From: Syntrophaceae bacterium
GTDB lineage: Bacteria > Desulfobacterota > Desulfomonilia > UBA1062
Length of the DNA: 64,000 nt
Direction of reading: 5' to 3'
Assembly: GCA_039680665.1 (NCBI GenBank)
Contig: JBDKSM010000035.1
Coordinates: 337 to 64,336 of the forward strand
Shown one piece after another: positions 24,201-64,000 of the stretch. The first letter of the stretch is position 1; each line of letters begins with the position of its first letter. A model generated the notes under the pieces. That model saw nothing but the letters and a program-made list of their open reading frames with translations. It did no database searches and had not been told where the DNA came from. A program made the translations under genes and the position numbers.

Positions 24201-25175
24201 ACCCAGATTGGAAATCATGGCGGAAGCATTATACCGGCCCCGCCGATAATTCAGTTTCGAAAGCATGGTAAACCCAAGACCGAGGAGCTTGAGCGGCGTC
24301 ACTTCAATGAATTCCGTACCGACATACGGCATGCAATCCGTCTTATTGTCGAGCTGTTTGAGAATATCATGGGTTATGGATTCAGGGCTCGATGCCTGCG
24401 TGATATCTACATACAGGGCGGTCGTCAGATTGCTGGTACACCGCAGGCCCGGTTGGTGAGATCGCAAGTCCACTGGCACGATCAAGCGCACCAGTCCATC
24501 ACCGTTTCTCCATGCGGATTGCGCCAACGCCCATCCTACCTTGCCTAATAAGACGGGCAGCGCACCCTTAAACGTCAGGCGGCGCCACATGATACCGTCC
24601 TGACCATCGGGCCGGGACATACCCGTGGGGGCGATGGCACGGTCGGCGTAGACATCACGGGTCTGCTGCGTGATGCTGTTCATGATCTGTTTGTCGGTGA
24701 TGGCCCATTGCGTGCCCAGGAACGGAGCGCCCTGCATGATCCGGAAAACATCTTCGGCCCAGGTTATCACCCCGCGGCCATCCATCACGCCATGGCTGGC
24801 CCGGAAAATAATGCGCGGCGTAGACCCCTCAACCCACAGCACTTCGCAGGTAGGTCCGCTATGGGGCAATCGGTCATGCAGGAAGGGCGCATTTTCAGGG
24901 CCGTACCCGTCCCATGCCTCTCCGGAGACGACCCTGACGCAAGGCGCCCGACCGGAATCCACCCAGCGCGAACCCCGCAGAGACCCTTTCAATACTAAGC
25001 GCGTCCCCGGATTAAGCTCGGAAGCCTTTCCTACCGCCGCGGCCAGGTGACCCACATCCAGGCTACCGCGGCCTTCCAAGACCATTTGGACGACAAAAGG
25101 CGAGGAGGCGCTGTCGATGCTCAGCCAGGACCGTTCAATATACGAAAGAGGTCGATGCAAATTGTTCCTAGTCAT
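21231..25175 (-). CDS. Single-module NRPS-like protein (~1314 aa): condensation-like domain (aa 1-400, active-site variant SHGVMDG), partial second condensation-like region (aa ~415-660), adenylation domain, peptidyl-carrier domain; no TE/R domain
   Basis: Start trimmed to MTRNNLHRPLSYIERSWL (ATG 25173-25175 with RBS GGAGGA). A-domain cores LSYGELL (A1), GAAYVPLDP (A2), LAYVIFTSGSTGSPKG (A3), NFDLSVYDVF (A4), GELHIGGIGLALGYW (A6), YKTGDL (A7), GREDFQVKIHGHRIELGEIE (A8), NGKLDR (A10). PCP motif FFDLGGDSLKVIML. Confidence 0.9.
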   Translation of the reverse strand: MTRNNLHRPLSYIERSWLSIDSASSPFVVQMVLEGRGSLDVGHLAAAVGKASELNPGTRLVLKGSLRGSRWVDSGRAPCVRVVSGEAWDGYGPENAPFLHDRLPHSGPTCEVLWVEGSTPRIIFRASHGVMDGRGVITWAEDVFRIMQGAPFLGTQWAITDKQIMNSITQQTRDVYADRAIAPTGMSRPDGQDGIMWRRLTFKGALPVLLGKVGWALAQSAWRNGDGLVRLIVPVDLRSHQPGLRCTSNLTTALYVDITQASSPESITHDILKQLDNKTDCMPYVGTEFIEVTPLKLLGLGFTMLSKLNYRRGRYNASAMISNLGHIDTQAFCADSFRAETCFFVPPPLDRAAVFVALAGCQGCEELTIAVSRQLGNTGRFERLLADIGRALAPEDAKSLQAGPAKPPSEPSTFWQERLPNMPPVPDLPLVANPSAATPPRVTRRSARLDAEKWQLIKDRACSLGVTPTAVIASAFSGVLARWSKTPRFTIGMSVSQRPGLSAEGPDAPSGQPVSVTTLLPVDALAANDFALCTQLLSEELKTKLDERFLDELQTLPGFGRISGLSPVPPIPVMLYADLEDVSERSGGSLPDKLSDAPQIWLNHRACELDGHLVFTWDSIDEVFESGVAQDMFASYHRYLEVLASPEVCWDQCRCPAIPVEHQALYDEVNATRAPFSSNLLHTLFLEQALQHPEAPAVITPGRSLSYGELLNRAMRLGHYLRVHGAEPNTCVAVLMEKGWEQIVGVMGVLFSGAAYVPLDPGLPRERLRYLLEETRVKVVLTQTRIHAQLTWLTEWTCLCVDRNDLPAVDDLSPASVQQATDLAYVIFTSGSTGSPKGVMIDHQGAVNTIRDINQRFGVGPEDRTLALSNLNFDLSVYDVFGLLAAGGAVVIPDAQDRQDPAHWSDLLLRHSVTLWNTVPALMQLLVDYAEQTPQAIPDCLRLVMLSGDWIPVSLPARIRAQNAGAEIISLGGATEASIWSILFPVTEVQKEWVSIPYGKPMANQRFYVLDANLNPCPLWVAGELHIGGIGLALGYWNDPDKTGQRFIVHPESGERLYKTGDLGRWLPDGNIEFLGREDFQVKIHGHRIELGEIEAALLKNPTVAEAAVIAASDERGSGKHLLACVVCRAEDNDTTVEGRGAADVNLKSILTEFLQGYLPEYMIPKHFVFLERLPLTTNGKLDRQVLNAYKITDAATGEYTAPQNELQTVIARLWAEVLGLERVGIHDNFFDLGGDSLKVIMLKNRLKQELVRDIPLMMIYKYMTIDAFACYLGEGETGVADKALEEAWRSDAAEAGKVSGLRQSATPRMTMEA
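24131..24141. repeat. G11 (C11 on coding strand) homopolymer inside the NRPS CDS, encoding PPP in ...FFVPPPLDR...
   Basis: Direct count: gcccgatcca + 11 G + acgaag. Confidence 0.9.
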
Positions 25176-25506
25176 ATGTTCCTCCATACTGTCGGATCTC
25201 CTCAGGTGCTGATGGCAAGCATGTCACAAGCTCCTTGCCGATCGCCCGTGGCGGAAATAAATTTCATTTACATGAAAACTATTTCCCATCCACCATTCTA
25301 CGCCACTACGCCAAAACACCTCCAGTCCTCTGTTTGCGCCCGCAATTCGATCGCAACGCGACCGCGATGCTCATTTATGCTTGTTTTTCTGCAACACGCA
25401 TGCCATCTAACGAACCCTACCTACCGGTCATTTATCAGCCGCACTTCTTCCCAAGGCGCCATGATAACCTTGACCGGCGCTCGATTTTCACGTAGTCAAA
25501 GGCCTC

Positions 25507-26519: not shown

Positions 26520-28374
26520 CTAAAGCGCAATGTCCACCTGGTAGGCGTGGCTGTCAACGGTGCGCGACATCGGATAAGCCGCTTTTTCCAGGACCTTGAG
26601 CATGGACTGGTTGTCGCGCCAGACGATCGCCCGCACGATTTCATAGGCAAGCGTGCGGCCGATGGCGACCATGGACTCGAATAGGTAGGTCCCTATACCC
26701 AGACGTTGCCAGGCCGGGTCCACCATGGCAGCGAACTCGCACACCCGCCGACCGCCGCTCTCTTCGTCCGGAGCGATATGCGCCACGGCCACGATGCGTT
26801 CCTGCTTGTCGCCTAAGGCCTGGACAACCAGGGCCATGGATTTCGTGTAATCGACATTCACCAGATACTGCGCCTGTTTATGGTGCAATGAGGCCATATG
26901 ACGCAGAAAGCGATGGAACCGGTCGTCCTTGCTCATGGCATAGAACAGATTCTGTATGGCGCGCTCGTCGGTCACCTTGACCGGCCGTATATGCACCTCC
27001 CTGTCGCCGAAGGCCCGGATCTGTTCGTGAGCGCTCGGGTAACAGGCCTCCGCAGGCGGCAGGGCCTGGTCTTCGTAGAGGTATTTTTTCCCCTTGGCTT
27101 CTTCGAGCAGCCATGGTCTGAATTTGGGGTGGGCAATCGTGATGAGCGCCAGCGCCCGTTCGCGGATGGATTTTCCGAACAGGTTGACGCACCCGTATTC
27201 GGTGACCACATAATTGACATCGCTCTGGGTGGTGACGATCCCGATCCGACTGTCGGTAAATTCCGGGACGATGCGGGAGAAACGGCCGTCACGCGAGGTC
27301 GAGCGCAGCGCGATGATGCCCTTGCCGCCGAGGGTGAACATCGCCGTGCGGTTGAAAACCGCATGTCCCAAGGCCCCGAAGAACGACGTGGGCTCGCCGA
27401 GGCCGACGCATGACTGCCCGGTCAGGTCGATCTCGACCGCTCCGTTGATGGCGATGAAGCGTTCATGGGAAAGAATCCGGGCCGGGTCGCTGATAGAGGA
27501 CAGGGCAAGGATTTCGACATCACGATTTTCGTGTACATACTCGAAGACCTTCTGGCTGCCGATGCACAAGCTTGAGGTGACGGCTGGGGCCTCAACCACA
27601 GCTGCCCCTGTGGCTAGCGCCCCGGCGGCGGCAAGATCGACGATGCGATCGGTGATGATCTCCGAATGGATACGCAAGTTTTGCTTGTCCTTCAAAAATT
27701 GCATGGCGGCGTCGGGAATCCGGCCGAACCCCACCTGAATAGTGGATCCGTCCTCGACCAAACGGGCCACGTTGCGTCCCACCGCAAGGGTCTCGGGATC
27801 AGGCTCCTCCTGACGGAAGGTCACGAGCGGCTCGTCGTGCTCCACGATATAATCGATATCCGTTAGCGGGATCAAACTATCGCCCCGGGTGATGGGCATA
27901 TGCCGGTTGACCTGGGCGATCACTCTTTCGGCCTTCCCAACGATGGCGCGCATGATATCCACCATAATGCCCAGACTGGGCATACCCTCCTCGTTGGGCG
28001 GGCTCAGTTGGATGATGGCGGTGTTGATCCTGATGTAGCCTTCATCAAACAGCTTGAACATGCCCAATGTGGAGAGAGGTAGATGGTCGGCCTGACCTTC
28101 CGCAAAGGCCGATCTCATCGCCGGGGCGACGAAGAAGGTCTGTATCCGGAAACGGGAGCCGAAATCACCGCCATAATCCGCATAGCTCCGTAAGGGCACG
28201 GAGGTATACACGTGGACATCGCTCAGGTGCATGTTATCGAAGATGAGGTGTTTGGCCAGATACTGAGGTTCTCCGCATCCGGACTCGACATACACGCATG
28301 ACCCCGGCTGGATAAGCTCCAGCAGGCGCTCAACGGTAGTTATCTTGCTCGTATACTCCTCTTTCCACATCATA
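26520..28374 (-). CDS. Acetyl-CoA hydrolase/transferase (ACH) family protein fused to a C-terminal GNAT acetyltransferase domain
   Basis: N-terminal two ACH lobes; C-terminal ~170 aa with the GNAT core (…QRLGIGTYLFES…). Start trimmed to ATGATG at 28374. The track start at 28415 is a TTG. Confidence 0.75.
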
Positions 28375-28622
28375 GCGGGCCCATTATCTCTACCACTGCG
28401 TTTTTCGTATTTCAAACCAAGGCCAACACCCTATCGTCATGTCGCGGCTGAGAAATTAACCGATCACCGCGATGATCTTCCAGGGCTATTGATCTCGGAG
28501 GCGCCAATTATCCGTGAAAATGCGGGGCGATTCCATTGGACAAAAGCCTGCAAGCCATGGCACAGTAAGATGCCCCCTAAGGGACAAATCCTTGTCAGGG
28601 CCGGGGAGCACGAACCATTGAG

Positions 28623-35174: not shown

Positions 35175-36468
35175 TCACGGATAGGCTCGATACATCATGC
35201 GCGGGAAGGGGATCGTCTCGCGTACGTGCTTCAGCCCGCAGATCCAGGCCAGAGTCCTTTCGATGCCCATGCCGAAGCCGGAGTGCGGCACGCTGCCATA
35301 GCGGCGGACATCCAGATACCAGCCGTAGCGTTCGGGATCGAGGCCCTGGTCCCTGATAGATTTCAAGAGTACGTCGATATCCTCTTCGCGCTGCGAGCCG
35401 CCGATGATCTCTCCGTAGCCTTCGGGCGCCAGAAGGTCGGCGCACATGACGACCTCCGGCCGATCCGGGTGCTGTTTCATGTAGAAGGCCTTGGCCTGCT
35501 TGGGATAGCACTCGATGAAGACCGGCTTGTCATAGAGCTTGGTCAGAATGGTCTCGTCGTCGCCGCCCAAGTCGATGCCCCATTCGATATTCGAACCGTT
35601 CTTTTGCAGGATTTTCACTGCCTCATCGTAGCTCAGCCGATAGAAGGGTGTCGTGATCTTTTTCAGGGGTTCCAAATCGCGCTCGAGGAACGTCAGCTCC
35701 GCGGCCCGCTCCGCGATAGTGTTCTGCACGATGTAGGCCACCAGGTTTTCCTGGACCTCTAAGTTCATCGTATGGTCATGAAAGGCCATCTCGCCCTCAA
35801 CCATCCAAAACTCGGTCAGATGCCGGCGGGTCTTGGATGGTTCGGCCCGGAAGGTGGGCCCGAAGCAATAGACCTTGCCAAGACCTGCCATGGCGGCCTC
35901 CAGATAGAGCTGGCCGGTCTGGGACAGATAGGCTTTGCCCAGGTCGAAATACTCCACGCTGAAGAGATTGGAGGAATCCTCGCCTACCGTGGTGGTGAAG
36001 ATGGGGGTATCCACCAAGGTGAAGCCATTCTTGTAGAAGAAATCGCGCACATGCCGCACCAGGGTATCGCGTATGCGCAGGATCGCTATCTGGCGTGGGG
36101 ACCTAAGCCAGAGGTGCCGGTGGGTTAACAGAAAATCCGGACCATGCTCCTTTTTGCCGATCGGGAATTCCTCGGATTTGTGGACGATGGTGATGGAAGC
36201 GGCATGCAGCTCGAATCCACCCGCGGCGCGTTCCTCTTTGACCACCCGTCCGGTGGCGATAACGGAGGACTCCAGCGGTAATTTGCGGATCTCTTCATAG
36301 AACTCCCCGAAGGTTTCGCGTTCGGCCACGACCTGGCAGGTGCCGGTGCCGTCGCGCAGGATGAGGAAGGAGACCTTGCCGCTCGACCGGCGGTTCGGGA
36401 CCCAGCCCTGGATGGTGACCTCCGCGCCGATATGCGCGGGAAAATCGCGGATCGTGCATATACTCATA
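35175..36468 (-). CDS. asnS: Asparagine--tRNA ligase
   Basis: Trimmed to MSICTIRDFPAHIGAEVTIQGW (ATG 36466-36468, RBS GGAAGGAGAG). Class II motifs FRAE and GxGxER plus a C-terminal IPFPR. Confidence 0.9.
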
Positions 36469-36625
36469 CATTGCTCTCCTTCCAAGTCTGAAAAAAATTC
36501 ATAGCGCAGATGACGCGGCCGATCAAGCGGAAGAAGAACATACGTCTTCGCACCTCCGATCATTCGCACCCAGGGAAATATGCGCTTGACACTCAAAGTC
36601 CAATTCGATAAGGAACCCACATGAT

Positions 36626-36698
36626 GGGCCCTTAGCTCAATTGGTAGAGCCACCGGCTCATAACCGGTAGGTCCCTGGTTCGATTCCAGGAGGGCCCA
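36626..36698 (+). tRNA. tRNA-Met (anticodon CAU; elongator-type, or possibly tRNA-Ile2 if lysidinylated), CCA not encoded
   Basis: Acceptor GGGCCCT/AGGGCCC with G1:C72 paired (not an initiator), anticodon loop CTCATAA. Confidence 0.85.
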
Positions 36699-36795
36699 CT
36701 CAAAAGGTAGGTAGGGTGAAAGACAGATCATACATTAAAGCGAGGTGAAGGATAAAAGGGGTGCAGAGATGCACCCCTTTTCTTTTTGAAAACGT

Positions 36796-40753: not shown

Positions 40754-41959
40754 TCACCGTGACAATGGCGCGTCTTCAAGCAGGGACTTAAGCGTGGTCC
40801 ATTGCGGGCCCTCAAGCATGCGGCCTTGTGCGGTGAAGACCGTGGGAACCCGGGTGACGCCGAGCCTTTGGCTGAGATCGTTCGACCGTGCTAAGCGGGA
40901 CTCGCCGTCTCCACAGCTCAGGGGCTCTGATCCGGCGGGTGGCATCCACTGCTTTGAAAGATAGGTCTCCAGATCGACCTTGCGGCACAGCGCCGCGATC
41001 GCCAACGTTTGGGCCGCGCCCCTGGCCCTGAACAGTACCCGTAGCTCGGTCCCGGTCTCGTCCAAAAGGGGCTTGATTCGTCCCAAAAGGTCCTCGCAGT
41101 AAGGGCAGGTTGGGCTTGCAAAGAGATACAGGACCTGCTTGACCTGGCCCGGCGGGGTATACCGGAAGGCCACCGCCTGGTCGATATCGCGCCTGAGGGC
41201 CTGAAATCTCTGCGTGGCCAACAGCTGCAGTCCTTGGCCGGAGATGTACCTTCGGTCTTGAAACATCCCGCCGGCAATGACAAAGCTTTTCCCCAGGTAG
41301 ACCGGCACGATCTGATTCTCGGTCCTGATCAGGACCTCGCAGAGACCGTTGACCGGCCTTTTCCCCAGCAACACCGGCGCGGTGAACTGCTTATGGCGAT
41401 TAATCGATATCAGGCTCACGCCCTCACAGGGGTCCCGGGTCAGACGTTGGAACAAAAATATCCCGGCTACGCCGAGCACCACCAGCAGTACTATCAGCAC
41501 CCTGTCATTGTTTGCGCTCCGCAAGGCGCGAGACCTTCCGCGCGCGGGCAAGGGGGAAAGGAAAATAAAGACCGCCACGAGCAGCAGGGCAATATCCCGC
41601 ACCAGGTAGATCCAGGAGATCCGCTGGGCCTCCGGGGAGGTGGAAAAACACCCGCAGGAGATATCAAAGCCGCGATAGAGGCTCAAGGCCAAGGCAATCA
41701 GAAAGGCCACGAGCATGGCGGATACGGCCAGGGCGCCGCCTTCCCGACCGATGCCCATGGCGACCGCCAGACCTGCCAGGAGCTCCACCCAGGGCAGCAT
41801 GAGCGCAAAGGCATTGACCGACCAAGGCGGCAGGATACGGTAGGCGGCCACGGCTTGGGCAAAACCGGCAGGATCGGCGATATGGATCAGGCCGGTATAG
41901 ATAAACACCACGCCGATGAGTATGCGTGCCAGACCGTGGGCGATACGGTAGGTGTTCAT
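40754..41959 (-). CDS. Fusion protein: N-terminal MauE/DoxX-like membrane domain (CGCF motif) + C-terminal thioredoxin-fold CxxC domain (SPTCPYCEDL)
   Basis: Trimmed to MNTYRIAHGLARILIGVVFIYTGL. The ORF-track N-terminus overlaps tRNA-Leu antisense and is rejected. Confidence 0.65.
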   Translation of the reverse strand: MNTYRIAHGLARILIGVVFIYTGLIHIADPAGFAQAVAAYRILPPWSVNAFALMLPWVELLAGLAVAMGIGREGGALAVSAMLVAFLIALALSLYRGFDISCGCFSTSPEAQRISWIYLVRDIALLLVAVFIFLSPLPARGRSRALRSANNDRVLIVLLVVLGVAGIFLFQRLTRDPCEGVSLISINRHKQFTAPVLLGKRPVNGLCEVLIRTENQIVPVYLGKSFVIAGGMFQDRRYISGQGLQLLATQRFQALRRDIDQAVAFRYTPPGQVKQVLYLFASPTCPYCEDLLGRIKPLLDETGTELRVLFRARGAAQTLAIAALCRKVDLETYLSKQWMPPAGSEPLSCGDGESRLARSNDLSQRLGVTRVPTVFTAQGRMLEGPQWTTLKSLLEDAPLSR

Positions 41960-42063
41960 AGAAAAAGCATGTCTCACCCGACCAAGCCACCTGTCAATCA
42001 AAATGTACACCCGCAATCCCATATTGACAGCCGTGCAATAGGTTGCTATGACGTGACCGAACT

Positions 42064-42150
42064 GCCGAAGTGGTGGAATTTGGTAGACACGCCATCTTGA
42101 GGGGGTGGTGGGCCAAACCCGTCCGGGTTCAAATCCCGGCTTCGGCACCA
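42064..42150 (+). tRNA. tRNA-Leu (anticodon GAG), long variable arm, CCA encoded
   Basis: Acceptor GCCGAAG/CTTCGGC, anticodon loop TTGAGGG, 15-nt variable arm, T-arm CCGGGTTCAAATCCCGG. Confidence 0.85.
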
Positions 42151-42174
42151 TTTTTATTTTAGAACAGGAAAGGA

Positions 42175-47365: not shown

Positions 47366-49279
47366 ATGGAAAGAATCGACCCCTTGAAGCTTGACCGTAT
47401 ATTGAGTGATATCGAGATCCCGACGCTGCCTTCGATCGCCACGGCGATCATGGAACGCACGCTGGATGAAAAGACCAGCGCGAGGCAGCTCGCGGACATG
47501 GTGGAGAAGGATCAGGCCCTGGCCGCCAAGGTCCTCAAGGTGGCCAACTCGCCCTTCTATCGCCGCATCCAGGAGATCTCCACTATCCGTTCCGCCGTGG
47601 TCCTCTTAGGCCTCAACGTACTCAAGAGCATCGTGCTTTCCATATCCGTGATCAACATGTTCAACGACAAGCGCAAAAAGGTGCTCGACCTGTATCTTTT
47701 CTGGCAGCACAGCATCGCCTGCGCCGTCTGTGCCCGGACGATCGCCAACAAGAGCTTCCCGGCCATGGCCGAGGACGCCTTTGCGGCCGGGCTGCTGCAC
47801 GATCTGGGCAAGGTGGTCTTCGATCAGACCATCTGCAACAAGGGCGAGTATCAGGAAGTCCTGGATATCATGGACCGCGGCGGGATGGATATCATCCGGG
47901 CCGAGCAGGATGTGATCGGCATCGACCATGCCGCTCTGGGCAAGCGCCTGATGGAGAAGTGGAACCTGCCGGCCATCTTGAGTCTGGCGGTCGCGCAACA
48001 CCATTACGCCCCGGCGGGACCGCTCAAGGAATCCGAGGGCAAGCGCTTAAGCGCCATCGTTCACGTGGCCGACCTGATCACCAATCATCTGGGCTTAGGG
48101 ATTTACAAGATGGCCACCGGATTCATCGAGCCCTCGATCCTCAAGCAGCTCGATCTGTCCAGCCAGGATATCCAGGAACTCTCCCTGTCCCTCAAGGACA
48201 ACATATCGGCCATCAGCGAGGAACTGGGCATCCCCAAGGCTGAGCCCAAGACCTATTTCGAGGTGTTGCAGTCGGCCAATGCCCAGCTGGGGAAATTGAG
48301 CCTCGATCTGGAGCAGAAGAAGATGGCCCTGGAACGCCGCGCCGTGGAGCTCTCGGGCCTGAATCAGATGAGCACCCAGCTGCAGTCGGCGATCAAGCTG
48401 GCCGAAATCGCCTCGGTCGTGACGACCAACGCCCTGACCATCATGGGATCCAAGAAAGTCCGCTGCATGATCCGGCTCAACAATCTGCGCATCATGGTCA
48501 CGGACTCTTTCCTGATCGGCAATGATATCCAGACCCGCTCAGGCGTGGCCGGCGCCACCAAAGAGCTGCTCGACCGTACCCGCGGCGTTATCCCCAAGGG
48601 CGGCGGCATCATGTATGCGCCCATCAAGGTCGAAGACCAGCCCATCGGCATCATAGAATCGACTCCCTTGGAGGAGCAGCATGAGGACATCACCCAGAAG
48701 ACCATCCTGCTGAGGACCATCGCGGATGTCGGGGCCCAGGCCATTCAACGGGCCACGCTGTATACCAAGAACATCAAGTCGGAACGCCTGGCGGCCATAT
48801 CCAAGACCGCCATCGCCGCCAACCACGAGATCAACAGCCCCTTGACCACCATCCTCGTCAAGCTTGATACGCTGCTGCGCAACACCGCCTTAAAGCCCGA
48901 GATCCAGGGCGCCTTAAAGGAAATCAAAGATGAGACCAACAAGGTGCGCGTCGTGGTGAAGAAGATGCTGGAGATCTCGGATGTGGTGGAGACCGATTAC
49001 GTCAAGACGGAAGCCAAAACCGAAAAAATGCTCGACCTGAACAAGGCGGCTCAGAAACCGATTCAGACCCCCAAGCCCGCCACGCAAGCGCAGCCACAGA
49101 CTGCCGAGACCCCGCCTGCGGAAGATGTTCCGGGCTTTGAAGACTACCTGGACAGCGGCAAGGAAGCCCCTTTGATTAATCCGCAGCAGGCGGGGGCAAA
49201 GCCCGCTGAATCAGCCACGCCGGATTCGCCCACCCCCGTCGACGACAAGCCGGGGTTCGAGGAGTATATCGACGAATAA
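47366..49279 (+). CDS. HDOD-domain signalling protein with coiled coil, GAF-like region, kinase-less HisKA/DHp-like domain (conserved His in AANHEINSPLTT) and an acidic repetitive C-terminal tail
   Basis: HDOD N-terminus (…LPSIATAIMERTLDEK…, …VANSPFYRRIQEISTI…); no HATPase_c; two C-terminal PGFE[DE]Y[LI]D repeats. Confidence 0.7.
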   Translation: MERIDPLKLDRILSDIEIPTLPSIATAIMERTLDEKTSARQLADMVEKDQALAAKVLKVANSPFYRRIQEISTIRSAVVLLGLNVLKSIVLSISVINMFNDKRKKVLDLYLFWQHSIACAVCARTIANKSFPAMAEDAFAAGLLHDLGKVVFDQTICNKGEYQEVLDIMDRGGMDIIRAEQDVIGIDHAALGKRLMEKWNLPAILSLAVAQHHYAPAGPLKESEGKRLSAIVHVADLITNHLGLGIYKMATGFIEPSILKQLDLSSQDIQELSLSLKDNISAISEELGIPKAEPKTYFEVLQSANAQLGKLSLDLEQKKMALERRAVELSGLNQMSTQLQSAIKLAEIASVVTTNALTIMGSKKVRCMIRLNNLRIMVTDSFLIGNDIQTRSGVAGATKELLDRTRGVIPKGGGIMYAPIKVEDQPIGIIESTPLEEQHEDITQKTILLRTIADVGAQAIQRATLYTKNIKSERLAAISKTAIAANHEINSPLTTILVKLDTLLRNTALKPEIQGALKEIKDETNKVRVVVKKMLEISDVVETDYVKTEAKTEKMLDLNKAAQKPIQTPKPATQAQPQTAETPPAEDVPGFEDYLDSGKEAPLINPQQAGAKPAESATPDSPTPVDDKPGFEEYIDE

Positions 49280-55733: not shown

Positions 55734-56437
55734 ACCGAGAATCGGCCCGCGGTGAAGAGAAAATATTCACCCATCGCGATAAAGACGGCGCCGAAGGCCT
55801 TCTGGACCCAGACCATCCAAGGCCCGGCCTTGGGCAGATTTTTCAATAATCCGGTAAAGGCGCCCAGCACAATCAGCATGGTGCCCATCCCTAAGGCGAA
55901 GACAAAGAGCAGGCTCACGCCTAAGGCAATGTTCTGCTTGGTGGCCACATAACCCAAGATAACGCCCAAGACGGGAGCCGTACAAGGCCCCAGGATCAGC
56001 CCCGACACCATGCCCATCAGAAAGCCGCCCACATACCCGCCCCCTTTGGCGGAAGGCTGGAGCCGGTTCAGGTATGGCAGGGTCGGGATATCGAACACGC
56101 CCAGCATGGAAAGCCCGAGCACGATGCAGATATTGGCGATAACGAACGCGGTCCAAGGACTCGACTGGATCGCGCCGAAGAAACTGCCGGTCAAGGCGGC
56201 CAGCCCCCCCAGCACGGTATAGGTGGCGGCCGTACCGAGCACATAGACCAGCGACAAGGTAAAACCATGCCCACGCGAGCTACCCTTCCCGCCGATATAG
56301 GCCACGGTGATGGGGATGACGGGGTAGATGCAGGGGGTGAAGCTCACCATGAGCCCGCCGACATATACCGCCACGTAGGCCAGCAGGGGCGCATGGTACA
56401 CATAGGTTTCGATATTGCCCAGTAGGGTTTCCAGCAT
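55730..56437 (-). CDS. ccdA: Cytochrome c-type biogenesis thiol-disulfide transporter CcdA (DsbD beta-domain-like)
   Basis: MVSFTPCIYPVIPI... plus the second conserved Cys in GPCTAPVLG; 4-nt overlap with the tlpA-like gene. Confidence 0.8.
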   Translation of the reverse strand: MLETLLGNIETYVYHAPLLAYVAVYVGGLMVSFTPCIYPVIPITVAYIGGKGSSRGHGFTLSLVYVLGTAATYTVLGGLAALTGSFFGAIQSSPWTAFVIANICIVLGLSMLGVFDIPTLPYLNRLQPSAKGGGYVGGFLMGMVSGLILGPCTAPVLGVILGYVATKQNIALGVSLLFVFALGMGTMLIVLGAFTGLLKNLPKAGPWMVWVQKAFGAVFIAMGEYFLFTAGRFSV

Positions 56438-56708
56438 GCCAGTTTCTTACGTTTCCTCTCCAGGATCTTATGAAGCCACCTTGTCCGTTAGCCGGACCGC
56501 TTCCCTTAAAGCCTCCGCCATGAACTTCGTATCGGAGATCTCAACCTTTCCGATAGAATCCTATGTACCACAGCCCTCATTCCTTCTCAACTCTGAGGCG
56601 CGCCCTTGTTACTTTCACTTGAATTTTTTTAACCTTTATGATTTTATACCTGATTCCCGGGCTTGCATAAGGCCAGAAATCATGGGATGAAAGGGGAAGA
56701 GACGCGAT

Positions 56709-57581
56709 ATGCACTACGATATGCCGCTGTATCGACCGCCCTCGGAGGCGGATGCGCTTATCTTCCAGGTTACGCTCGGGTGCTCCTGGAACCGGTGTTT
56801 GTTCTGCGGGATGTACAAGGGCAAACGTTACCAGGTCAGACCTTGGGACGCGATCGAAAAAGACATCCTCGAGATGTCCAGCGCCCAGCCGTTCACCAAG
56901 CGCATATTCCTGGCCGACGGGGACGCCCTGGGGGTCGATAGCGATCACCTGATCAAGGTCATGACCCTCATCAATGAGCGCTTCAGGCACCTGGAGCGCA
57001 TCAGCATCTATGCCGGACCGACCAACCTGAGGGACAAGACCCTGGAGCAGCTTAAGGCCTTGAAGGACCTCAAGCTCGATATCCTCTACCTGGGCATTGA
57101 GTCCGGCAACGACGAGATCCTAAAACGCATTCACAAGGGCGCCACCAGCCAGGAGATCATTGACGGCGGCCGCAAGGCCATTGCAGCGGGCTTACGGCTT
57201 TCCACCATCATCCTCTTGGGCTTAGGCGGGGTGGATGGAAGCCTCACGCATGCCAAGGATTCGGCCAAGGTAGTGAGTGCCATTGATCCTCACTTTCTGG
57301 CCTGCCTGACGCTCATGCTCGGGCCCTATGCCGAGGTCTATGAGCAGAAGATCATGGGCGGCGGCTTCAAGCTGCCGGACAAACGTCAGACCCTGCAGGA
57401 GCTGCGCTGGTTCGTCGAGGACCTCACGCTGACCGATTGCCGTTTCGGCACGGAACACGCCTCCAATTATCTGCCTATCGGCGGGCAGCTGGGGGCCGAC
57501 AAGGAGCGCATCTTAGGCCTGATCGATCGGGCGCTCAAGGATGACCGGCTCTTACGGCCCGAATGGGCGCGCGGCCTCTGA
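56709..57581 (+). CDS. Radical SAM protein with non-canonical CX4CX2C cluster motif (CSWNRCLFC)
   Basis: GCSWNRCLFCGM near the N-terminus; TIM-barrel-like remainder; specific family not assignable. Confidence 0.6.
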   Translation: MHYDMPLYRPPSEADALIFQVTLGCSWNRCLFCGMYKGKRYQVRPWDAIEKDILEMSSAQPFTKRIFLADGDALGVDSDHLIKVMTLINERFRHLERISIYAGPTNLRDKTLEQLKALKDLKLDILYLGIESGNDEILKRIHKGATSQEIIDGGRKAIAAGLRLSTIILLGLGGVDGSLTHAKDSAKVVSAIDPHFLACLTLMLGPYAEVYEQKIMGGGFKLPDKRQTLQELRWFVEDLTLTDCRFGTEHASNYLPIGGQLGADKERILGLIDRALKDDRLLRPEWARGL

Positions 57582-57629
57582 TTGACAATGACCATCTGCG
57601 TGTTATAACGCTTCCAAGGAGGGTTCCGT

Positions 57630-58874
57630 TTGATTACAGGCATACGCGGCATGAACGATATCCTACCGCCGGATATCCCCCAATGGCGTTTTGTCGAAGA
57701 GACGGCGCGGCGTATCTTCGGTCTATACGGTTATTCCGAGCTGCGTTCACCCGTGCTCGAAAAGACCGAGCTCTTCCTGCGCGGCATGGGTGAGGACACC
57801 GACGTGGTGGAGAAGCAGATGTATACCTTCGCCGATAAATCCGGCGACTCGGTGAGCTTGAGACCCGAGGCCACGGCCTCGGTCTTAAGGGCCGTGATCG
57901 AGCACGGACTCTTGGGCCAGGAACCAATCCAAAAGCTCTTTTCCATCGGGCCCATGTTCCGCTATGAACGGCCGCAGAAAGGACGTTACCGCCAGTTTCA
58001 CCAGATCAACTGCGAGCGTCTGGGCGAATCCGGGCCGCTCATCGACGCCGAGACCCTCTGCCTGGCCTACGATATCGCCGGCGCCTTAGGGCTATCCGGG
58101 ATTGAGCTCGAGGTCAACTCCCTGGGCTGCCCGGTCTGTCGCCCGGCCTATCAGCAGGCCTTGCGCGCCTTCATGCTCTCCCGCAGAGCAGATCTGTGCG
58201 ATAACTGCCGGCGCCGCATGGAGACGAACCCCTTGCGGGTCCTGGATTGTAAGGCCGAAAGCTGCAAGGTCGCCGTAATCGATGCCCCCGCGATCGAAGA
58301 CTATCTGTGCCCGGATTGCCGCTCCCACTATCAAGCCGTACTGACGGCCCTTGCCTCGCTCGAAGTGCCGTTTACCAAGAACACCCGGCTGGTGCGGGGG
58401 CTCGACTATTATACCAGGACCACCTTCGAGATCTCGGCCGCTGGTCTGGGTTCACAGAATGCCATCGCCGGCGGCGGCCGCTACGACGGGCTCATCGCCG
58501 ACCTGGGCGGTCCTGCTGCGCCCGGCATCGGATTCGCCTTCGGCCTGGAGCGCTTGATCATGCTCCTTGAGCCCATCCCGACCCAAACCCAGGGCTGTTT
58601 CGTGGTGGCTTTGGGCGAGGACGCCAAGGAACAGGCCTTGTGTCTCCTCACCGCCTTGCGCCGCGCCGGGATCCGGTCCGAGGCCGCCTTGGACAAATCA
58701 TTCAAGGTGCAAATGCGTCATGCCGGAAAATCAGGGTACCCCTTGTGCGCCATCTTGGGGGGGGATGAAATCGCCTCCCGGACGGTCACCCTCAAGGATC
58801 TTGGAAGTGGCGAACAGTCAAGTGTGGCCAGGGACGTCTTCGTGAACGCGGTCAAGCAAGCTCTCGACCTATGA
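57630..58874 (+). CDS. hisS: Histidine--tRNA ligase
   Basis: IRGMNDILPPDIPQWRFVEETARRIFGLYGYSELRSPVLE. Confidence 0.9.
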   Translation: MITGIRGMNDILPPDIPQWRFVEETARRIFGLYGYSELRSPVLEKTELFLRGMGEDTDVVEKQMYTFADKSGDSVSLRPEATASVLRAVIEHGLLGQEPIQKLFSIGPMFRYERPQKGRYRQFHQINCERLGESGPLIDAETLCLAYDIAGALGLSGIELEVNSLGCPVCRPAYQQALRAFMLSRRADLCDNCRRRMETNPLRVLDCKAESCKVAVIDAPAIEDYLCPDCRSHYQAVLTALASLEVPFTKNTRLVRGLDYYTRTTFEISAAGLGSQNAIAGGGRYDGLIADLGGPAAPGIGFAFGLERLIMLLEPIPTQTQGCFVVALGEDAKEQALCLLTALRRAGIRSEAALDKSFKVQMRHAGKSGYPLCAILGGDEIASRTVTLKDLGSGEQSSVARDVFVNAVKQALDL

Positions 58875-60664
58875 AGGAGAAGCACGTGAATACGGGAATG
58901 GAAGGTTTTGTCAGGACACATTATTGCGGCGAGGTCAAAAAGGATGATTGCGGAAAGAAGATCACCCTCTTGGGCTGGGTGCAGAGGCGGCGCGACCTGG
59001 GCGGACTCATCTTCGTGGATCTCAGGGATCGCAGCGGCATCTGTCAGGTGGTCTTCAATCCCGAAACCTACCCAAAAGCACATGCCGTGGGGCATAACCT
59101 GAAAAGCGAATACTGCGTGGCCGTTGAAGGCGAGCTTTCCGAACGGCCGAAAGAGATGCAGAACAGCGCCATGCCGACGGGCGAGGTCGAGCTGATCGCC
59201 GAGCGGATCACGATCCTCAATGAGGCCAAGACGCCGCCCTTTGTGGTGGAGGACGGCCAGGAGGTAAGTGAGGCCTTGCGCCTCAAATACCGCTACCTCG
59301 ACCTCAGGCGACCGAGCCTTCAGGCCAATCTGATGCTGCGCCACAAGGCCGCTATGGCGGCGCGGACCTATCTGGATACCGCCGGATTCATCGAGGTTGA
59401 AACCCCGGTCTTGACCAAGAGCACGCCGGAAGGCGCGCGGGACTACCTGGTGCCGAGCCGGGTGTATCCGGGACGCTTTTATGCCCTGCCTCAATCGCCG
59501 CAGCTCTTTAAACAGCTCCTCATGATCTCCGGTTATGACCGTTACTACCAGATCGTGAAGTGCTTCCGGGACGAAGACCTGCGCGCCGACCGCCAGCCGG
59601 AGTTTACCCAGATCGACATGGAAACGTCCTTCATGAGCATGGATGCGATCCTTACGACCATGGAAGGACTCATCGCGGCCATCTTCGAGAAGACCATCGG
59701 CGTGGTGTTGCCCATACCGCTGGCACGCATGCGTTATGACGAGGCCATGGCCTCCTACGGCGTGGACCGTCCCGATACGCGTTTCGACCTCAAGCTCCAC
59801 GATGTCTCGCCGCACTTTCAGGGCACGGACTTCAAGGTCATCGCCTCGATCCTGGAAGCGGGCGGCATCGTCAAGGCGTTGGCCATTGAGGACGCCGCCG
59901 ATCTTTCGCGCAAGGACATCGATGCCCTGGGCGCCTATGCCGCCGATTTCGGGGCCAAGGGCATCCTGTGGGCGCGCCTGAACGAGGATGGCTGGCAATC
60001 GAGCCTGGCCAAGCATTTGAGCCCGGAGCAGCGCGCGGCCATCGAACAGAGTCTGGGTATGTCCAAGGGCGACGTGGCCATCTTCATCGCGGACAAGCCC
60101 GCGGTGGTCAATGCCAGCTTAGGCGCGCTCAGACTGCATATCGCCCAGCGGCGCGGTCTCATCCCCGAGCATGCCTTCAGCGCCCTGTGGGTCACGGACT
60201 TCCCCTTGCTGGAATGGAGCGCCGAGGATGGGCGCCTGGTCTCGGTGCATCACCCCTTTACCGCGCCTTTTGAAGAGGATCTCGCCCTGCTGGCCAGCGC
60301 GCCGCAGAAGGTCCGGGCTCAGGCCTACGACATGGTGATCAACGGCAGCGAAGTGGGCGGCGGCAGCGTGCGCATTCACCGCCGCGAGGTCCAGCAGCAG
60401 GTCTTCAAGAGCATCGGCTTGAGCGATGAGGAGGCGCGCGTCAAGTTCGGATTCCTGCTGGACGCCCTCGAATACGGCGCACCGCCGCACGGCGGCATCG
60501 CCTTCGGTTTAGATCGGCTGGTGATGCTCCTGACCGGGGCGTCATCGCTCAGGGACGTCATCGCCTTCCCCAAGACCGCCAAGGCCTATTGCACCATGAC
60601 CGACGCGCCCTCTGATGTCGACGAAAGACAGCTTGAAGCCCTTGGATTAAAGGTGTTAAAGTAA
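58871..60664 (+). CDS. aspS: Aspartate--tRNA ligase
   Basis: OB-fold N-terminus, class II motifs (FRDEDLRADRQPEFTQIDME; GGSVRIHRRE), 4-nt overlap with hisS. Confidence 0.9.
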   Translation: MKEKHVNTGMEGFVRTHYCGEVKKDDCGKKITLLGWVQRRRDLGGLIFVDLRDRSGICQVVFNPETYPKAHAVGHNLKSEYCVAVEGELSERPKEMQNSAMPTGEVELIAERITILNEAKTPPFVVEDGQEVSEALRLKYRYLDLRRPSLQANLMLRHKAAMAARTYLDTAGFIEVETPVLTKSTPEGARDYLVPSRVYPGRFYALPQSPQLFKQLLMISGYDRYYQIVKCFRDEDLRADRQPEFTQIDMETSFMSMDAILTTMEGLIAAIFEKTIGVVLPIPLARMRYDEAMASYGVDRPDTRFDLKLHDVSPHFQGTDFKVIASILEAGGIVKALAIEDAADLSRKDIDALGAYAADFGAKGILWARLNEDGWQSSLAKHLSPEQRAAIEQSLGMSKGDVAIFIADKPAVVNASLGALRLHIAQRRGLIPEHAFSALWVTDFPLLEWSAEDGRLVSVHHPFTAPFEEDLALLASAPQKVRAQAYDMVINGSEVGGGSVRIHRREVQQQVFKSIGLSDEEARVKFGFLLDALEYGAPPHGGIAFGLDRLVMLLTGASSLRDVIAFPKTAKAYCTMTDAPSDVDERQLEALGLKVLK

Positions 60665-60669
60665 GGTTT

Positions 60670-61488
60670 ATGAAACAACTGTGCGCCATAATCGCCGTTT
60701 TGATTGTGCTCGCGGGGTGCGCCTCGAGCAAGTCCGCCACGAAGGCGGAGACGCCCGCGTCGCCGAAGGCGCCCCAAAGCCTTGAGGACCTCAAGCTCAA
60801 AGCCGGCCTGGAAAGCCTTAAGGCCGGCATCGAGGCGCGCGACCTGGGAAAAGAAGAGGAGGCCCTGGCGGCCTTCCGCCTGGCCCGCAAATATCTGGAT
60901 GATATCGACGCGCCGTCCCGGGACATCCTGAGCGATGGAGCCGAGGACCTCAGGCGCATCATCTCCATAGCAGGTTTTGTATACGCGCCCAAAGAGTCCA
61001 TGGAACTGCTGGTCGTTTACCTTGAAATGCAGAACGCCTATGCCATCCACGATACCGAGACTCTGAAAAAATTGAAAACGCTCTTTGACGAGCGCTCCGA
61101 CCGCGCCAAGGACGCCACCGCCATGGCCAAGCAGAAAAGGCTCGAGATGCTGGGCCAGGAAGTGGCGGCCAAGAAGGAGGAGATTAAGCGCCAGGTCGAG
61201 CCCGAACCGACCCCGACCTACCCGAGCGTTTATATCGTCAAGCGCGGGGATACCCTGCCGGGTATTGCGGCCAAACACGATATCTACAACGACTCGTTCC
61301 TGTGGCCGCTGATCTACAAGGCCAACCGGGATCAGATCAAGGATCCCAAGAGCCTCTACACCGGACAGGACTTGAAGATCCCGCGCGACGTATCCATGGA
61401 AGACATCATACAGGCCAGGCGCGAAGCCGGAGCCCCCGAACCGGACAAGATACCCAAGGACGCGCTGCTGCCAAGGAGGACCAAATAA
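60670..61488 (+). CDS. Lipoprotein with C-terminal LysM peptidoglycan-binding domain
   Basis: Lipobox LAGCASS; LysM YIVKRGDTLPGIAAKH...GQDLKIP. Confidence 0.75.
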   Translation: MKQLCAIIAVLIVLAGCASSKSATKAETPASPKAPQSLEDLKLKAGLESLKAGIEARDLGKEEEALAAFRLARKYLDDIDAPSRDILSDGAEDLRRIISIAGFVYAPKESMELLVVYLEMQNAYAIHDTETLKKLKTLFDERSDRAKDATAMAKQKRLEMLGQEVAAKKEEIKRQVEPEPTPTYPSVYIVKRGDTLPGIAAKHDIYNDSFLWPLIYKANRDQIKDPKSLYTGQDLKIPRDVSMEDIIQARREAGAPEPDKIPKDALLPRRTK

Positions 61489-61490
61489 TC

Positions 61491-63401
61491 ATGGCACGAT
61501 GGGACGATAAGAAAAAGATCTTCTACTACACCGGCGCCAAAAACTATGAAACCGGGATCCATGACCGCGATGAGGGCAACTACTACCGCGCTATCTTCAA
61601 TTACGACGAGGTCCCCAAGATCGATTTCGATATGCGCATCATCCCGATTGCGCCGTCCGAAAACATCTGGATAACGGACACCACCTTCCGGGACGGCCAG
61701 CAGTCCATGACGCCGTTTTCGGTCAAACAGATCGAGACCATTTACGACTACCTGCACCGCATCGGTGGGAAGCGCGGCCTGATCAGGGCCAGCGAATTTT
61801 TCCTCTATACCAAGAAGGACAAGGCCGCGGTCGAGGCCTGTTTGGGCAAGGGCTACGAATTCCCGCGCGTTACGTCATGGATACGGGCGCACAAGGACGA
61901 CCTGAAGCTCGTCAAGGAGATGGGCTTAAACGAAACCGGGATCCTGACCTCGGTCTCGGATTACCATATCTTCCTCAAGATGAACCTGAACCGGCGCAAG
62001 GCCCTGGACGAATACCTCGGCATCGTCAAGGATGCCCTGGCGGCCGGCATCGTCCCGCGTTGCCATTTCGAGGACGTGACCCGCGCCGACATCTACGGCT
62101 TCTGCGTGCCGTTCGCCCGCGAACTGATGCGCCTGCGGGAGGAATCCGGCATCGACGTCAAAATACGTTTGTGCGACACCCTGGGCTATGCCGTCAACTT
62201 CCCGGGCGCGGCCCTGCCGAGAGCTGTGGACAAGCTCGTGCGGGCCTTCATCGATGACGCCGGCGTGCCGGGCGAGCTCCTGGAATGGCACGGCCACAAC
62301 GATTTTCACAAGGGACTGGTCAACGCCACCTCGGCCTGGATGTACGGCTGCTGCGGCGTCAACTGCGCCATCCTGGGCTTTGGCGAGCGCACCGGCAACA
62401 CCCCTTTGGAGGCCATGGTCTTTGAATATCTCCAGTTGCGCGGCCACGATGACACCCTGGACACGCGCGCCATCACCGAGCTGGCCAACTACGTCAATTC
62501 CGAGATGAACTACACCATCCCGCCCAATTACCCCTTTGTGGGCGATAATTTCAACGTGACCCGCGCCGGGATCCATGCCGACGGCCTGGTCAAGAACGAG
62601 GAAATTTACAATGTCTTCGACACCACCAAGATCCTGAACCGGCCCATCGCCATCGCCATCACCGACAAATCGGGCAAGGCCGGTGTGTCGCACTGGATCA
62701 ACAACCACTACAAACTCACCGGCAGCGACACCATCGACAAGAAACACCCCGGCATCACGCGCATGTACCAGCACATGGTCAAGGAGTACGAGGACGGCCG
62801 CATGACCACCATGAGCGACGAGGAGCTCGAAAAGCTGGCCAAACGCTTCATCCCGCAGATCTTCCTGTCCGGCTTCGACCTCATCAAGGTCGAGGCGCGC
62901 GAATATGCCGGCCAGCTGATCGAAAAGCTTCTCTCGCACCCCGACATGCAATCCATGGATCCGGCCAAACAGGAGAGTGTACTGACCGAGTTCATCGAGG
63001 AGTACTCCTTCATCCAGTTCGCCTATGTCACGGACATGAACGGTATCAAGGTCACCAAAAACATCACCCAGCCTGAATATCGCGGCCATTTTCAGCACAA
63101 GATGAAGGAGAATGAGGACTGCTCCGACCGCGATTGGTTCCGCAGGACCATGGAGGACGGCAAGCTGCATGTCAGCGGCATCATCGCCTCGCGCATCACC
63201 GGCGCCTTGATCATCACGGTCTCGGCCCCTATCGTGGACGCCGACGATGATATGATCGGCGTGCTGGGCCTGGATATCCGCTTCGAGGATGTGGTCAAGG
63301 TCATCCAGGATGTGTACGAATCGCGGGGCATGAGCATGAGCGCCAAGGACCTGCACAAATACCAGTCCCTCTTGTGGGAAGAGCTGCATAAACAAGTCTG
63401 A
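61491..63401 (+). CDS. DRE-TIM metallolyase of the 2-isopropylmalate/homocitrate/Re-citrate synthase family (catalytic ~aa 40-400) fused to a ~230-aa C-terminal extension ending in a Cache/PAS-like ligand-binding fold
   Basis: Trimmed to ATG 61491 (RBS AAGGAGG). DTTFRDGQQ and [10 protein letters not shown] metal-site motifs; C-terminal [31 protein letters not shown]ache signature; immediately upstream of icd. Confidence 0.75.
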
Positions 63402-63411
63402 AAGGAAAGCA

Positions 63412-64000
63412 ATGGGAACCAAGATTCGCTTTGAAAACGGCAAGCTGATTGTACCCGACGATCCGATCATCCCCTATATCGAAGGCGACGGCGTGGGGCC
63501 GGATATCTGGAAGAGCGCTGCGGCGGTCATGGATGCCGCCGTGGCCAAGGCCTATGGCGGCAGGCGCGCCATCGCCTGGCTGGAGGTCTATGCCGGTGAA
63601 AAGGCCCACCAGAAGTGCGGCTCGTATCTGCCCGAGGAGACCCTGGCGGCCCTGCGCGAGTACATCGTGGGCATCAAGGGCCCGCTGACCACGCCCGTGG
63701 GCGGCGGCATCCGCAGCTTAAACGTCACCTTGCGCCAGGTGCTGGACCTCTTTGCCTGCATCCGGCCGGTCAAGTACTACGCGGGCACCCCGGCTCCGGT
63801 CAAGCGCCCCGAGTTGGTGGACATCACCGTGTTCCGCGAGAACACCGAGGATGTCTACGCCGGCATCGAATGGCCGCAAGGATCGGCTCAGGCCGACAAG
63901 CTCATCGGCTTCCTGACCAAGGAACTGGGCGCGGACATCCGTCCGGACTCCGGCATCGGCATCAAGCCCATCAGCATCACCGGCACCAAGCGCCTGGTGC
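63412..64000 (+). CDS. icd: Isocitrate dehydrogenase (NADP-dependent, prokaryotic Icd type), N-terminal part; continues past the window end
   Basis: [33 protein letters not shown]... Confidence 0.85.

Follow-up and report, generated by a model that had tools for sequence, protein, structure and literature searches.

The question raised by the gene at 61491–63401 (+) of the window, i.e. of the complete 64,000-nucleotide (nt) stretch of the Syntrophaceae bacterium contig JBDKSM010000035.1 analysed here, is which reaction its product catalyses and what a sensor-type domain does at the end of a metabolic enzyme. The initial annotation had read the gene as a DRE-TIM enzyme of the LeuA/Re-citrate synthase (Re-CS) family carrying a C-terminal Cache-type domain. 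We confirmed this assignment and found all three peptide motifs that had been quoted for it in the protein. The best explanation overall, which we regard as rather probable, is that the gene encodes a cytoplasmic long-form Re-CS with a carboxylate-sensing allosteric Cache module.

Domain organization of the protein

The gene is an intact open reading frame (ORF) of 636 codons. Its product of 636 aa (72.7 kDa) is acidic and soluble. By sequence-based prediction the protein has neither a signal peptide nor a transmembrane (TM) segment, and its N-terminus is highly charged. An alternative GTG start at 61302 would overlap the upstream LysM gene, and the homologues shown start with MARW or MAKW. 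The features of the gene are given below; residue counts refer to an alignment of 197 long forms, i.e. Re-CS homologues with the Cache module.

61473–61479 (+): Shine-Dalgarno sequence AAGGAGG, read from the sequence, ending 11 nt before the ATG
61491–63401 (+): predicted long-form Re-CS gene (ORF, BLAST matches, no TM segment or signal peptide)
61491–61664 (+): N-terminal extension, residues 1–58, mostly aligned with Re-CS of the Clostridium kluyveri type
61665–62495 (+): DRE-TIM / HMGL-like catalytic barrel, residues 59–335 (Pfam PF00682, E 5.6e-29; PDB matches to isopropylmalate synthase (IPMS), homocitrate synthase (HCS) and CimA)
61677–61703 (+): DTTFRDGQQ motif, residues 63–71; R67 and D68 in 196/197 long forms, the remaining row being a gap
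62289–62303 (+): HGHND motif, residues 267–271; H267, H269 and D271 invariant (197/197)
62496–62870 (+): post-barrel linker, residues 336–460, HCS_D2-like plus helices, also present in short-form Re-CS; aligns with the linker subdomains of LeuA/HCS
62871–63320 (+): single module of Cache/PDC fold, residues 461–610, with a long N-terminal helix, a second helix and an antiparallel sheet
63129–63140 (+): R547-D-W549-F550, a motif presumed to anchor a carboxylate in the Cache pocket; R in 196/197, W and F in 197/197
63273–63275 (+): invariant D595 (197/197) of the ‘GLDI’ strand, aligned with the ‘GxD’ Asp of PctA and Tlp3
63321–63398 (+): C-terminal helical tail, residues 611–636, poorly conserved and modelled with low confidence (predicted local distance difference test, pLDDT)

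Relationship to known Re-citrate synthases

Reference Re-CS sequences were taken from Table S1 of PMC12016533; within this table SYN_02536 of Syntrophus aciditrophicus is listed as a known Re-CS. The copied sequences contain small reading errors, and the identities given here are therefore slight underestimates. Against SYN_02536 the protein aligned in one BLAST segment that is colinear over the full length (query 1–629 to 1–621), with 54.9% identity. Divided by domain the identity was 65% for the barrel, 58% for the linker and 44% for the Cache module (residues 461–610). BLAST further gave 55.6% identity to the C. thermocellum homologue (query 18–458), 50.3% to C. acetobutylicum CAC0970 (query 20–457) and 48.8% to C. 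kluyveri CKL_0973 (query 27–457). The alignments to CKL_0973, Clo1313 and SYN_02536 start at query residues 1–27 and thus include much of the N-terminal extension. LeuA, NifV, the Dehalococcoides-type Re-CS (CAI83711) and HM1_2993 matched at 26–29% identity, over the barrel only.

In a neighbor-joining (NJ) tree built from 351 barrel columns the query fell within the CKL/SYN clade of Re-CS with a bootstrap value of 89, and this clade stood apart from LeuA, NifV, CimA and the second Re-CS lineage. The long forms had little support as a monophyletic group (bootstrap 28), and we therefore do not claim a single gain of the module. No solved structure was found within the Re-CS clade; in the PDB the family profile found its best match in the IPMS 3eeg (E 1e-27).

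By sequence, the protein is a close homologue of SYN_02536, an Re-CS reported as characterised, and probably its orthologue. It is very likely on these grounds that this particular protein has Re-citrate synthase activity (EC 2.3.3.3). The S. aciditrophicus Re-CS is reportedly the purified enzyme of Kim, Le, McInerney and Buckel (2013, J Bacteriol 195:1689), which is reported to depend on Mn/Co; CKL_0973 is said to be the C. kluyveri Re-CS of Li et al. (2007, J Bacteriol 189:4299).

Fold and relatives of the C-terminal module

A Pfam search of the protein gave a match to MCP-like_PDC_1 (PF22673) at residues 496–600 with 45.8–47.1 bits, above the gathering score of 27, and one to dCache_1 (PF02743) at residues 492–605 with 39.9–43 bits, just below the gathering score of 45. 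No match was obtained to LeuA_dimer (PF08502) at E<=1, and the query itself did not match YkuI_C (PF10388) at E<=0.01. An AlphaFold2 (AF2) model of residues 441–636 has a mean pLDDT of 83.6, with most of the core at 88–96. In this model a long helix and a second helix are followed by an antiparallel sheet, and structure comparison found the arrangement similar to solved Cache sensors. The window protein carries one such module, whose counterpart in dCache_1-type sensors is the first PDC module, the membrane-distal one.

A regulatory domain of the LeuA type at the C-terminus, which the initial annotation had held to be replaced, is ruled out by the Cache/PDC fold seen in profile and structure comparison and by the missing PF08502 match. 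LeuA profiles align only up to query residue ~452, corresponding to profile position ~378–386 of ~494–504, which we take to be roughly the start of the LeuA regulatory domain. The region between barrel and module is linker: there is a weak PF22617 (HCS_D2) match at residues 351–404, LeuA and NifV profiles reach residues ~405–452, and the alignment to CKL_0973 extends to residue 457.

With the module as sole query, an exhaustive search returned only 382 clusters at 50% identity. The nearest relatives outside Re-CS that were sampled are chemoreceptors with the Cache domain after the MCP (methyl-accepting chemotaxis protein) signalling domain, and several of them also match YkuI_C. Eight sequences with the Cache domain C-terminal to the MCP signalling domain were noted (P0149, P0158, P0159, P0164, P0168, P0171, P0205 and P0269). 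This suggests, as far as sequence relationships go, that these chemoreceptor domains and the Re-CS module form a distinct cytoplasmic Cache sub-lineage. Since the nearest relatives follow a cytoplasmic signalling domain, the Re-CS Cache would belong to this sub-lineage and would not be a relocated periplasmic sensor. The earlier description of the domain as a normally extracytoplasmic module therefore does not hold for this lineage.

Occurrence of the fusion

The best 120 database homologues are 606–644 aa long, save one fragment of 528 aa, and share 55–96% identity with the query. All of them carry HMGL plus Cache/PDC, and PF02743 is on record for each. Among species-representative genomes we found at least 89 loci with the long form, in Thermodesulfobacteriota and several other phyla, and examined 80 of these; all locus counts given below refer to these 80. 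Their labels comprise Desulfomonilales, Syntrophales, Syntrophorhabdales, Syntrophobacterales, Desulfobacterales, Desulfovibrio, Bilophila and Mailhella as well as Nitrospirota, Spirochaetota, Elusimicrobia, Omnitrophota, Lentisphaerae, Armatimonadota and Ca. Termititenax. In 79 loci the Re-CS barrel is contiguous with and directly upstream of the Cache module, the remaining locus being truncated. The fusion is not new, because SYN_02536 already has the same two-domain architecture and this architecture is widespread: enzyme and architecture alike occur in SYN_02536 and across hundreds of genomes.

Conservation of the putative ligand pocket

In the sequence alignment the stretch SD-R547-D-W549-F550 falls on ‘AD-R-S-F-F’ of KinD, ‘S-R-P-W-Y’ of PctA and ‘T-K-D-W-Y’ of Tlp3. 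R547 is aligned with R131 of KinD, and the entry for the R131A mutant reads LADASFF at this place. According to PDB entry titles KinD was crystallised with pyruvate. Besides the residues listed above, S567 is present in all 197 long forms and T570, T576 and S578 in 194–196 of them, so that the pocket residues of the Cache module are as invariant as the catalytic residues of the barrel. In comparison with a 96% identical relative, the Cache module has a ratio of nonsynonymous to synonymous substitution rates (dN/dS) of 0.02; the value of the barrel is 0.08. The Cache module is under strong purifying selection.

Possible role of the Cache module

We propose the following mechanism. For the condensation of acetyl-CoA and oxaloacetate the DRE-TIM barrel would employ a divalent metal, with the RD-motif Asp and both His residues of HxH as its ligands. 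In this anaerobe the citrate would pass to a co-transcribed NADP-isocitrate dehydrogenase, which leads on to 2-oxoglutarate and glutamate. The Cache/PDC module of ~150 aa at the C-terminus would occupy the place of the amino-acid-binding regulatory domain of LeuA/CimA; its Arg547/Trp549/Phe550/Asp595 pocket may bind a small carboxylate, be it a 2-oxo acid, an intermediate of the tricarboxylic acid (TCA) cycle or an amino acid, for example glutamate, and may tune catalysis allosterically via the helical linker. This would be analogous to the Leu/Ile feedback in LeuA/CimA, through a different fold. Candidate effectors related to the pathway are 2-oxoglutarate, glutamate, pyruvate and oxaloacetate; the evidence favours none over the others, and our confidence in the identity of the ligand is low. 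Ligand binding and allostery by the module appear to us about evenly poised. The more specific proposal of a working cytoplasmic Cache sensor, in which a pathway metabolite at Arg547/Trp549/Asp595 allosterically controls citrate synthesis, is put forward tentatively and with slightly less confidence.

Several observations weigh against this overall explanation. Position 565 (63183–63185) is Ile in the query, whereas Tyr is found in 67% of the 197 long forms and Cys in 33 of them, and the pocket may vary within the long-form family. Its counterpart in PctA is chain residue 136, presumably Tyr144 in the numbering of the sensor motif. The amino-acid-sensor motif of Gumerov et al. (2022) reportedly consists of Y121, R126, W128, Y129, Y144 and D173 in PctA. 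In comparison to this motif R547, W549 and D595 are present, Y129 is replaced by the invariant Phe F550 and Y121 corresponds to position 542 (Glu/Thr); altogether 3–4 of the six positions are matched, with the mapping taken from a sequence alignment of ~17 bits. Both R-x-W-[YF] and GxD occur in the dCache_1 consensus in general, and the two motifs alone are therefore no proof of a functional pocket or of a ligand. Furthermore the module is dispensable for catalysis as such, because the short-form clostridial Re-CS work without it. The full-length AF2 model (pLDDT 68.8, predicted template modelling score 0.54, active-site loops below 50) is too poor for conclusions on inter-domain packing. Finally, icd is located downstream of the Re-CS gene in 16 of the 80 loci, mainly in Desulfovibrio-type records.

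The main rival to sensing is a structural role: the Cache-fold module could be a structural or oligomerisation element of the Re-CS, for instance in a homotetramer, and sense no small molecule. The LeuA C-terminal domain is likewise a dimerisation element, the Syntrophus enzyme is reportedly a homotetramer of ~73-kDa subunits (Kim et al. 2013), and the conserved residues could be structural ones, given that their motifs are those of the general dCache_1 consensus. PAS/Cache domains are moreover described as commonly dimerising in PMC8694187. However, the invariance is focused on polar residues at the positions of ligand contact in KinD, PctA and Tlp3 (R547, W549, D595, S567, T570, T576 and S578), the dN/dS of the module lies below that of the barrel, and the module is most closely related to chemoreceptor sensory modules. 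We therefore consider a purely structural role unlikely, if still the most serious competitor to the sensing of a carboxylate.

Far less probable is that the barrel runs another Claisen condensation, yielding homocitrate, citramalate, 2-isopropylmalate or another 2-oxo-acid adduct. Public names such as isopropylmalate, homocitrate or citramalate synthase point in this direction, and the best-scoring NCBIfam model is nifV homocitrate synthase with 145.7 bits. None of the NCBIfam equivalog cutoffs was reached, though (nifV 145.7 against 462.9, LeuA 122.5 against 517, CimA 73.8 against 950), the LeuA/NifV/CimA models thus remaining 3–10 fold under their curated cutoffs. As the initial annotation had suggested, the barrel groups with Re-CS and not with LeuA/CimA: identities to Re-CS are 49–56% (55% to SYN_02536 and 49% to CKL_0973, which share its NJ clade) in contrast to 26–29% for LeuA/NifV, and the tree agrees. 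In addition the gene adjoins icd and not leu, nif or lys genes, and the S. aciditrophicus enzyme reportedly acted on acetyl-CoA and oxaloacetate only (Kim et al. 2013).

An extracytoplasmic or membrane-anchored sensor with the Cache module facing the periplasm is effectively refuted and its probability negligible: Cache domains are mostly extracellular (so stated also in PMC8694187) and the sole hydrophobic window of the protein, with a top hydropathy of 1.85, lies in the Cache core, but this stretch is a confidently modelled beta-hairpin (pLDDT 88–96), signal peptide and TM segment are missing behind a highly charged N-terminus, the fused enzyme requires cytoplasmic acetyl-CoA, and the nearest relatives are C-terminal to a cytoplasmic MCP signalling domain.

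Comparison with related systems

The Cache-type module, with its SDR(D/E)WF and G-x-DIR motifs, is found at the C-terminus of SYN_02536 as well, and a Syntrophales orthologue (P0098) has the same hisS-aspS upstream synteny. The two enzymes come from different lineages: the window protein stems from a metagenome-assembled genome with the label Syntrophaceae, and the protein's closest relatives bear the labels Desulfomonilia or Deltaproteobacteria. They also differ at position 565, which is Tyr in SYN_02536 and Ile in the window protein, and icd follows directly downstream in the window but not in the Syntrophales loci examined. CKL_0973, CAC0970 and Clo1313 belong to the same barrel clade and have the N-terminal extension largely, and the post-barrel linker, in common with the query; they are, however, short forms of ~445–455 aa that end near query residue ~466 and lack the Cache module.

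With LeuA and CimA the protein shares the DRE-TIM barrel, the RD...HxH metal/substrate motifs, the linker subdomains and a C-terminal add-on at the equivalent position. In LeuA/CimA this add-on mediates feedback inhibition. The differences are an identity of 26%, the lack of PF08502 and an add-on of Cache/PDC instead of LeuA regulatory fold. KinD (B. subtilis, PDB 4jgo/4jgp, pyruvate-bound), Tlp3 and PctA are extracytoplasmic, TM-flanked, double-module sensors of kinases or chemoreceptors, whereas the module in the window is single, cytoplasmic and fused to a metabolic enzyme. In chemoreceptors with Cache after MCP and in YkuI_C proteins (PF10388; B. subtilis YkuI, PDB 2bas) the partner is an MCP or EAL signalling module and not a metabolic enzyme.

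Gene neighbourhood

The Re-CS gene is part of a tightly packed row on the plus strand in the order radical SAM gene-hisS-aspS-LysM-ReCS-icd, with a 4-nt overlap and gaps of 2–10 nt from hisS on. No terminator-like sites were found on the plus strand in 56400–64000.

57630–58874 (+): hisS (ORF), conserved upstream neighbour of long-form Re-CS
58871–60664 (+): aspS, overlapping hisS by 4 nt, conserved upstream neighbour of long-form Re-CS
60670–61488 (+): gene of a LysM-domain protein, by eye lipoprotein-like with a hydrophobic N-terminus and a Cys; ends 2 nt before the Re-CS start
63412–64000 (+): icd, NADP-dependent isocitrate dehydrogenase, 5’ part running off the window; the 10-nt gap before it contains the ribosome-binding-like sequence AAGGAAAG

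The icd reading frame starts with ATG at 63412 and matches TIGR00183 with 312 bits over the 196 residues within the window. A 96% identical relative has the same gene order. The adjacency to icd, which had initially been taken to suggest an Re-type citrate synthase role, was thus borne out for the window, where icd follows 10 nt downstream; as a general linkage it did not stand, and a tight universal Re-CS-icd operon is ruled out by the 16/80 loci mentioned above. The adjacency supports a pathway role at the window locus and is not a family trait. In the closest species-representative genome (locus L007, with 85% identity in the barrel and 78% in the module) neither icd nor aspS/hisS is adjacent.

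Upstream of the Re-CS gene the linkage is far wider than that with icd: aspS is found in 45 of the 80 loci, and hisS together with aspS in 31. The arrangement hisS-aspS, sometimes with a LysM gene, directly upstream of a long-form Re-CS was seen in the window (57630–61488) and in loci L009–L064. It may reflect co-regulation of aspartyl-tRNA synthetase with an oxaloacetate-consuming enzyme, or merely inherited synteny.

We also noticed a difference in the icd start. In the locus of the 96% identical relative (L001, 6001–9222) icd is called 100 nt after the Re-CS stop, with 403 aa, and in the window the icd ATG lies 10 nt after the Re-CS stop and matches the isocitrate dehydrogenase profile from position 11. 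The start in L001 may be called too late, because the window ATG with its ribosome-binding-like sequence 10 nt past the stop fits the profile.

Database names and relevance

The exact protein is NCBI MEN6472993.1, annotated as ‘histone-lysine N-methyltransferase [Syntrophaceae bacterium]’. Relatives in the clusters of P0015 and P0002 are named ‘triose-phosphate isomerase’, ‘2-isopropylmalate synthase’ or ‘cache domain-containing protein’, and the name ‘citrate (Re)-synthase’ is used in some JGI records only. Public names for the long-form family are inconsistent and mostly wrong, and ‘histone-lysine N-methyltransferase’ is wrong. Reconstructions trusting these names would overlook this citrate synthase. 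Many strict anaerobes without Si-citrate synthase, among them sulfate reducers, syntrophs and gut Desulfovibrio and Bilophila, enter the oxidative TCA branch through Re-CS and thereby reach glutamate synthesis.

In the open-access literature we found no paper on a Cache domain of (Re-)citrate synthase and nothing on the regulation of the Re-CS step; the role of the Cache domain on Re-CS appears to be unaddressed there. If the module senses a metabolite, this would explain flux control at the citrate node and would extend Cache outputs from signalling proteins to a metabolic enzyme. Among the literature found it would be the first Cache domain described to regulate a central metabolic enzyme directly, and a case of a regulatory domain swapped within the LeuA/CimA/HCS/Re-CS superfamily.

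Further features of the window

Several other genes of the window were noted. The minus strand contains at 18217–20490 the gene of a full-length neutral/alkaline ceramidase homologue of 757 aa (Ceramidase_alk, E 5.7e-145, plus its C-terminal domain) and at 26520–28415 that of a 631-aa acetyl-CoA hydrolase/transferase with N- and C-terminal domains, fused to a C-terminal GNAT acetyltransferase domain. The ceramidase homologue thus shares its contig with an Re-CS protein that bears the label Syntrophaceae. The 1318-aa protein encoded at 21231–25187 (-) has AMP-binding and PP-binding (carrier) domains at residues ~690–1275; its N-terminal ~690 aa gave no Pfam match at E<=1e-5. At 47366–49279 (+) a 637-aa protein combines HDOD, HD and HisKA phospho-acceptor domains.

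ARAGORN identified a tRNA-Leu(gag) at 42064–42150 (+), where the Rfam gathering pass gave only Gly and Met tRNAs. The tRNA-Met at 36626–36699 (+) and this tRNA-Leu overlap the 5’ ends of the minus-strand ORFs 35175–36731 and 40754–42151, respectively. Because of these overlaps the starts of both ORFs are probably called too far upstream.

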